NCBI RefSeq assembly: GCF_001677475.2
Contig: NZ_CP015229.1
Length of the DNA: 64,000 nucleotides
Direction: 5' to 3' (one strand)
DNA from: Escherichia coli
GTDB lineage: Bacteria; Pseudomonadota; Gammaproteobacteria; Enterobacterales; Enterobacteriaceae
The translations under genes and the position numbers were made by a program. This document shows positions 63,365 to 63,480 of the stretch, piece after piece. How positions within the stretch are numbered: position 1 is the first letter of the stretch; each line of letters begins with the position of its first letter. Below the pieces are notes generated by a model. It saw only the letters and a list, made by a program, of their open reading frames with translations. It had not been told where the DNA came from and did not search any database.

Positions 63365-63480
63365 CTAAATGATAATGATTGCTAATCCTAGCGATAGGTT
63401 TACCCGATAGCAAGGGATTTCTCTGGCTTGCAAATGATAAAAATTATCATATGATATTAGTTATCATTATCAATGAAAGA
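63365..63480. promoter_or_regulatory. Fur-box cluster in the divergent fhuF/yjjZ promoter region
   Basis: gataatgattgctaatc, tgataaaaattatcat and tagttatcattatc: repeated GATAAT/ATTATC hexamers typical of Fur operators. Confidence 0.65.

Follow-up and report, generated by a model that had tools for sequence, protein, structure and literature searches.

The genes fhuF and yjjZ of Escherichia coli diverge from a short intergenic region that is rich in matches to the Fur box, and the question raised by this arrangement is whether one Fur operator serves both genes or whether each gene carries an operator of its own. We addressed it in a 64,000-nt stretch of an E. coli genome (contig NZ_CP015229.1 of assembly GCF_001677475.2), hereafter the window, near the end of which the two genes lie. 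The first-pass annotation of this sequence had described a Fur-box region shared by fhuF and yjjZ, a wording that is too strong, given that published footprints and cross-genus comparison point to two separable operators, one per gene. We consider it about 90% probable that the gap between the genes holds two separate Fur operators, one over the core promoter of fhuF and the other over that of yjjZ.

The Fur operators of fhuF and yjjZ are already known and published, and the window adds neither a new member nor a variant; the region is among the best-characterised Fur-controlled regions of E. coli and carries little weight as a discovery. The modest addition made here comes from comparison across genera: by its position and its evolutionary history, the site commonly labelled as the fhuF Fur box belongs to yjjZ as its operator. 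Sequence matches, their statistics, cross-genus conservation and the separability of the two sites were established in this analysis; Fur binding, transcription starts and the dependence of expression on Fur and iron are taken from the literature on K-12 and other strains.

The locus and its correspondence to K-12

The last 3 kb of the window carry yjjQ-bglJ (plus strand), fhuF (minus), yjjZ (plus) and two tRNA-Leu(CAG) genes (minus), corresponding to leuV-leuP, in that order. The gene identities proposed at first reading, fhuF and yjjZ (DUF1435), are borne out by annotation and Pfam, and the length of 140 nt given for the divergent promoter region is exact. The features that frame the analysis are:

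62561..63349, minus strand: fhuF coding sequence, stop codon included, encoding a 262-aa siderophore-iron reductase (open reading frame, Pfam FhuF and FhuF_C, RefSeq annotation)
63350..63489, no strand: divergent intergenic control region, exactly 140 nt between the start codons, 32% G+C
63490..63726, plus strand: yjjZ coding sequence, stop codon included, encoding a 78-aa DUF1435 protein from the ATG at 63490 (Pfam DUF1435, E = 6e-37, and annotation)

The 561 bases around the gap find a match in 5424 of 5426 complete E. coli genomes, with a best match of 99.5% (SMS-3-5 included), and RefSeq annotates the genes in the matching genomes as siderophore-iron reductase FhuF and DUF1435 protein YjjZ, in agreement with Pfam. 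The region is absent from two of the 5426 genomes, and three of the matching places lie on plasmid-labelled records. Against K-12 MG1655 the gap aligns without insertions or deletions and is identical at 136 of 140 positions, the substitutions falling at 63388, 63421, 63459 and 63488. This gapless alignment gives a constant offset, such that K-12 positions are converted to window positions by subtracting 4,542,314 (NC_000913.3) or 4,540,337 (NC_000913.2). A scan of 62400-64000 against Rfam, with E values up to 1, returned the two tRNA-Leu genes only, leaving the gap itself free of any RNA family.

Longer versions of yjjZ, starting at TTG 63379 (115 aa) or at ATG 63451, were ruled out, since the published transcription start at 63463 lies downstream of both. 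The in-frame ATG 63451 would open a peptide beginning 'MILVIII...', whose cross-genus conservation is the mere translation of the Fur boxes. Gene callers may over-extend yjjZ elsewhere as well, as versions of 91-106 aa occur in the ORF lists of relatives.

Fur-box sequence in the gap, measured against chance

The first-pass annotation rested its case on arrays of GATAAT/ATTATC hexamers filling the gap. Three exact hexamers are present (63371, 63443 and 63466), together with five more that have one mismatch. The window-wide rate of exact hexamers is 0.14 per 140 nt, and three or more were reached in 72 of 5000 dinucleotide shuffles of the gap. Once one mismatch is allowed, the eight hexamers of the gap compare with 5.5 +/- 2.1 in the shuffled sequences, 891 of 5000 of which reached the same count, and this is not significant. 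The yjjP-yjjQ gap (60545-61162; 618 nt, 33% G+C), used as an internal negative control, holds five exact hexamers and no box above 10/14. Because the count with up to one mismatch does not exceed that of the shuffles, the hexamer density of the gap is mostly what AT-rich DNA yields.

Full-length box scores therefore took over from hexamer counting as the test, with chance again set by 5000 dinucleotide shuffles of the gap. Fur sites were scored as consensus matches rather than by weight matrix, using a 7-1-7 motif scored out of 14 and the 19-mer GATAATGATAATCATTATC scored out of 19. On this footing the gap contains 19-mer matches of 16/19 and 15/19 and 7-1-7 matches of 13/14, 12/14, 11/14 and 11/14. 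A best 7-1-7 match of 13/14 arose in 2 of 5000 shuffles, four sites of at least 11/14 in none of the 5000, and a best 19-mer match of 16/19 in 4. No other 140-nt tile of the 64 kb scores as high as the gap by any measure, and the best two Fur-consensus matches of the whole window, boxes A and B, both fall within 63430-63472. Counts of GATAAT-like hexamers are a weak criterion in AT-rich promoter DNA; full-length boxes together with conservation discriminate this gap from the neighbouring AT-rich one. Of the picture of arrays filling the gap, the presence of non-random Fur-box sequence stands, but the sequence is confined to two clusters, and the ~40 nt between them (63390-63429) lack any Fur-like site and hold the -35 element and spacer of the fhuF promoter. 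The centres of the two clusters are 65-82 bp apart. The range of 63365-63480 originally assigned to the Fur boxes also omits the left end of the conserved block next to fhuF, which starts at 63355.

Elsewhere in the window, the AT-rich yjiC-iraD region (idlP leader) has two Fur-like 7-1-7 matches 70 nt apart, TGACAAGTATTTTCA at 869-883 (11/14) and TGATGATTTTTATCA at 937-951 (12/14), the latter tying with box B for second-best in the window. We know of no report of Fur control of the yjiC-iraD region.

The probable yjjZ operator and the yjjZ promoter

The cluster nearer to yjjZ, cluster 1, is made up as follows:

63430..63472, no strand: Fur cluster 1, high-affinity operator of yjjZ, comprising boxes A, B and B' and lying within the published footprint fhuF1
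63435-63449, no strand: box A, TGATAAAAATTATCA, 13/14 against the 7-1-7 motif
63452-63466, no strand: box B, TGATATTAGTTATCA, 12/14 against the 7-1-7 motif
63458-63472, no strand: box B', 11/14 against the 7-1-7 motif
63430-63448 and 63453-63471, no strand: 19-mer matches from the consensus scan, 15/19 and 16/19, respectively
63428..63463, plus strand: yjjZ sigma-70 promoter, with -35 TTGCAA at 63428-63433, a 16-nt spacer, -10 TATGAT at 63450-63455 and start at A 63463

The boxes coincide with what has been measured on the K-12 sequence. The high-affinity Fur DNase I footprint fhuF1 (K-12 4603763-4603815) maps to 63426-63478 of the window, and box A is centred on 63442, the position of the strongest predicted Fur site in the same study (22.3 bits, K-12 4603779) (Chen et al., 2007, PMC2189734). 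The sigma-70 start of yjjZ at 4,605,777 (NC_000913.3) maps to 63463; transcription from it is off in the wild type, on when fur is deleted, and strong in vitro when only RNA polymerase is supplied (PMC10301672). This start lies 7 nt past the -10 element, five of the six columns of which are invariant across genera, and boxes A, B and B' extend over the spacer, the -10 element and the start. The spacer is given as 18 nt in the source of the published start, against 16 nt by sequence and scan (PMC10301672).

A candidate promoter on the minus strand of cluster 1, reading toward fhuF (TTGATA-16-TATGAT, 63473..63446, 10/12), was considered and found to be unsupported because the first two positions of its -35 element vary in relatives (TTGATA, CTGATA, TCGATA, CCGATA). 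Its -10 element derives from the palindrome ATCATATGAT, which gives TATGAT on both strands, and its TTGATA corresponds to 63473..63468; on these sequence grounds it is probably no real promoter.

The probable fhuF operator and the fhuF promoter

The second cluster lies next to fhuF and is sparser:

about 63355..63389, no strand: Fur cluster 2, low-affinity operator of fhuF, comprising box C and flanking GATAGT/GATAAT hexamers and lying within the published footprint fhuF2
63370-63384, no strand: box C, TGATAATGATTGCTA, 11/14 against the 7-1-7 motif
63379..63413, minus strand: fhuF promoter, with -35 TTGCTA at 63413..63408, a 17-nt spacer, -10 TAGGAT at 63390..63385 and starts at 63380/63379

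The low-affinity footprint fhuF2 (K-12 4603680-4603733) maps to 63343-63396, and the fhuF starts at 4603717/6 (NC_000913.2) map to 63380/63379 (PMC2189734). The -35 and -10 hexamers are our own reading of the sequence upstream of the published start; conservation across genera extends to the -35 element and to part of the -10 element (T, A and last T). Box C spans the start at 63380/79, directly downstream of the -10 element. No obvious Shine-Dalgarno sequence precedes the fhuF ATG within 63350-63365 (minus strand, ...CTATCCCGATTATG), the 5' UTR being ~30 nt long; in the same interval the 5' UTRs of C. koseri and S. arizonae have 7-9 additional bases.

Published dependence on Fur and iron

The proposal that both genes are expressed under iron and Fur control agrees with published work on the gapless, 97%-identical K-12 region. 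In gel shifts and DNase I footprints Fur covers both clusters as two distinct protected stretches, and Fur is documented to lengthen its footprints at higher concentration (PMC2189734). Iron-replete MG1655 gives a ChIP-exo peak at 4603779-4603794, equivalent to window 63442-63457 (PMC10164565 supplement). Row P135 of the MG1655 ChIP-exo data, which was left out, places fhuF at 4593337, ~9.5 kb off the gene (PMC10164565).

The core Fur regulon shared by nine E. coli strains, 36 genes delimited through ChIP-exo and through expression in fur deletions versus wild type, includes fhuF as well as yjjZ; across these strains the log2 fold change upon fur deletion is 5.5-11.3 for yjjZ, the first of the 36 core genes, and 2.0-8.5 for fhuF, which is derepressed less than yjjZ in all nine (PMC10164565). 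In CFT073 both are direct Fur targets with one ChIP peak and changes of 208-fold (yjjZ) and 90-fold (fhuF) (PMC7157518), and ChIP in W3110 likewise gave a single peak assigned to both genes (PMC10164565). In Salmonella, chelation induces a PyjjZ-gfp reporter and the addition of iron represses it (PMC8432900), and a yjjZ-lacZ fusion is repressed by Fur (PMC8970401). The Fur titration assay (FURTA), suggested at first reading as a check, was in effect performed decades ago, as its reporter is a chromosomal fhuF::lacZ fusion (PMC2189734).

Separation of the two clusters in sister genera

A scan for FhuF with one genome per species returned ten loci: five from Escherichia, four from Citrobacter and one from Salmonella enterica subsp. 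arizonae. All Escherichia loci, including those of E. albertii and E. whittamii, have the identical 140-nt divergent arrangement. In Citrobacter and Salmonella a tblastn search did not find yjjZ within 390 nt of fhuF, and a wider region exposed a gene between the two, on the fhuF strand, that encodes a 354-aa GGDEF protein of the diguanylate cyclase type (Pfam E = 4e-47). This gene is ~1.3 kb long and occurs at the five Citrobacter and Salmonella loci (L007, L008, L009, L010 and L012; 1316-2380 in L010, from S. enterica arizonae), and at none of those of Escherichia. It is presumably the orthologue of STM4551. At L012 the longest ORF between fhuF and yjjZ is just 205 aa, and judging by this sequence the GGDEF gene there may be disrupted.

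The gene is placed precisely between the two clusters:

63414..63425, no strand: junction of the two operators, the point at which the GGDEF gene sits in Citrobacter and Salmonella

Homology to the window extends up to ~63424 on the fhuF side and begins again at ~63425 on the yjjZ side. In the five Citrobacter and Salmonella loci the yjjZ ATG is ~1,440 nt from that of fhuF and the clusters are ~1.35 kb apart; the intervening 1.4 kb contain no further site scoring 11/14 or more. Box C lies 21-30 nt from the fhuF ATG, and each yjjZ-proximal box that scores at least 11/14 stands at a constant distance from the yjjZ ATG: box B at 23 nt in 5/5 loci, box B' at 17 nt in 4/5 and box A at 40 nt in 2/5.

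The boxes are also conserved at the level of single columns. Over 12 sequences from Escherichia, Citrobacter and Salmonella, cluster 1 (63430-63472) has 32 invariant columns out of 43 and cluster 2 (63355-63387) has 25 out of 33, both far above the neighbouring non-coding sequence, which has 4 of 26 invariant columns to the left of the yjjZ -35 element and 9 of 17 in the rest of the yjjZ 5' UTR. The conservation of 63355-63387 could be due in part to OxyR binding or to a function of the 5' UTR rather than to Fur alone. Sequence, position and conservation all mark the two clusters of the window as Fur operators, and binding and expression are supplied by publications on orthologous sequence.

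One operator or two

Since some 1.35 kb separate the clusters in Citrobacter and Salmonella, where each keeps the distance to its own gene, we interpret the Escherichia gap as two gene-specific operators that happen to stand side by side. From the positions of the boxes and from this separation we infer that each gene has one cluster and that repression works by promoter occlusion. With plentiful iron, Fe2+-Fur dimers on both clusters would shut out RNA polymerase and keep both genes off: on cluster 1, with its high affinity and three overlapping boxes, Fur would cover the yjjZ spacer, -10 element and start, and on cluster 2, with its lower affinity, one moderate box and hexamers, it would block the start region of fhuF. 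When iron is scarce Fur would depart and both promoters would fire, yjjZ as the sharper switch and fhuF in response to smaller drops in active Fur. This two-operator account fits with yjjZ being derepressed more strongly and more sharply, and with fhuF being under weaker repression that is easily titrated.

The main competing reading is a single shared operator, in which Fur nucleates at the high-affinity cluster and spreads or loops over the 140 nt, so that repression of fhuF needs cluster 1. The documented lengthening of Fur footprints with concentration (PMC2189734), the fact that ChIP in W3110 and CFT073 resolves just one peak for the two genes, and the short distance between cluster centres would all suit it, yet the same footprinting study resolved two stretches of different affinity, 63390-63429 is devoid of Fur-like sequence, and the lower derepression of fhuF in nine strains is what one would expect if each gene had its own operator. 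Because the clusters are 1.35 kb apart in the sister genera, each positioned by its own gene, a shared operator is not the basic design, and we regard this reading as unlikely. A single shared bidirectional operator would be one unbroken set of Fur sites that lies over both divergent promoters and is passed on as a unit; two clusters with separate published footprints in K-12, the clusters being parted by a whole gene in Citrobacter and Salmonella, do not fit that definition. Cluster 1, which in Escherichia lies ~50-100 nt upstream of the fhuF start, may still contribute to fhuF repression. A specific form of this idea, which we think doubtful, is that in Escherichia, where the GGDEF gene is lacking, Fur on cluster 1 aids the repression of fhuF by cooperative oligomerisation or a short loop, or that the promoter-like minus-strand element of cluster 1 adds a second, Fur-controlled fhuF transcript; in either version fhuF would have a lineage-specific iron threshold in Escherichia.

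Two further readings concern the identity of the sites rather than their number. Were 63355-63408 mainly an OxyR operator, Fur control of fhuF would come from cluster 1. We scanned for the OxyR consensus as four ATAG-type elements at 10-bp spacing (ATAGnTnnnAnCTAT-N7-ATAGnTnnnAnCTAT), and the best match in the gap is:

63372..63408, no strand: weak match to the OxyR consensus, tentative, 13/20, over the fhuF start, -10 element and spacer

A review does list OxyR repression of fhuF, from transcriptomic data (PMC8115020), and going by this match an OxyR site may overlap cluster 2. A score of 13/20 is weak, however, and eight sites in the window score at least 13; moreover, Fur protects 63343-63396 in vitro (PMC2189734), box C remains beside fhuF in the genera that have 1.35 kb between it and cluster 1, and roles for OxyR and Fur could coexist. 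We hold a mainly OxyR-directed site to be improbable. Far less credible still, with next to no probability, is that AT-rich promoter DNA, such as UP elements or H-NS-bound sequence, yields the hexamers as a by-product, with no specific Fur sites at all. The hexamer count with up to one mismatch and the five exact hexamers of the yjjP-yjjQ gap are as this reading would have them, but the full-length boxes are the best in 64 kb and recur in at most 4 of 5000 shuffles, they are nearly invariant over three genera while their flanks diverge, and published Fur footprints, ChIP-exo and derepression upon fur deletion refute it.

Relation to known Fur-controlled regions

The gap is the same locus as the K-12 sites fhuF1 and fhuF2, with the same boxes, promoters and, after mapping, footprint positions (Chen et al., 2007, PMC2189734). 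It is likewise the locus of the Fur sites listed by EcoCyc for the K-12 yjjZ promoter, as far as these are relayed in a later paper (PMC10301672). The Fur boxes, promoters and distances to the ATG codons in Salmonella and Citrobacter are orthologous to those of the window, and yjjZ of Salmonella is repressed by iron and Fur; the difference is that yjjZ there diverges from the GGDEF gene and not from fhuF. The high-affinity site overlies the core promoter of yjjZ and accompanies that gene in other genera, which fits the standing of yjjZ as the most Fur-repressed core gene and that of fhuF as a weakly repressed, easily titrated reporter.

The divergent pairs of the enterobactin cluster, fepA-fes, fepB-entC and fepD-entS, are the natural comparison, having back-to-back sigma-70 promoters with Fe2+-Fur boxes over the core elements. 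All three have been footprinted with Fur (PMC2189734). The fhuF-yjjZ operators differ from them in being ~40 nt apart, of unequal affinity and split by a whole gene in sister genera. Because of this split, the pairing of the two operators appears to be an accident of Escherichia gene order rather than a conserved bidirectional unit.

Of the four substitutions that distinguish the window from K-12, one falls in box B and another in the fhuF -10 element. At 63459, the centre of box B, the window has A and K-12 has G (A, G and T all occur within E. coli); the 7-1-7 motif leaves this middle base unspecified. At 63388 the substitution turns the TATGAT of the K-12 fhuF -10 element into the TAGGAT of the window. 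The 57-nt haplotype of the window over 63360-63416 is the commoner: of 5426 complete E. coli genomes, 3559 have it exactly, against 414 with that of K-12, most of these being laboratory strains. All the binding data, like all work on the fhuF promoter and FURTA, thus come from a strain, K-12, with a minority allele of the fhuF -10 element that is nearer to the -10 consensus.
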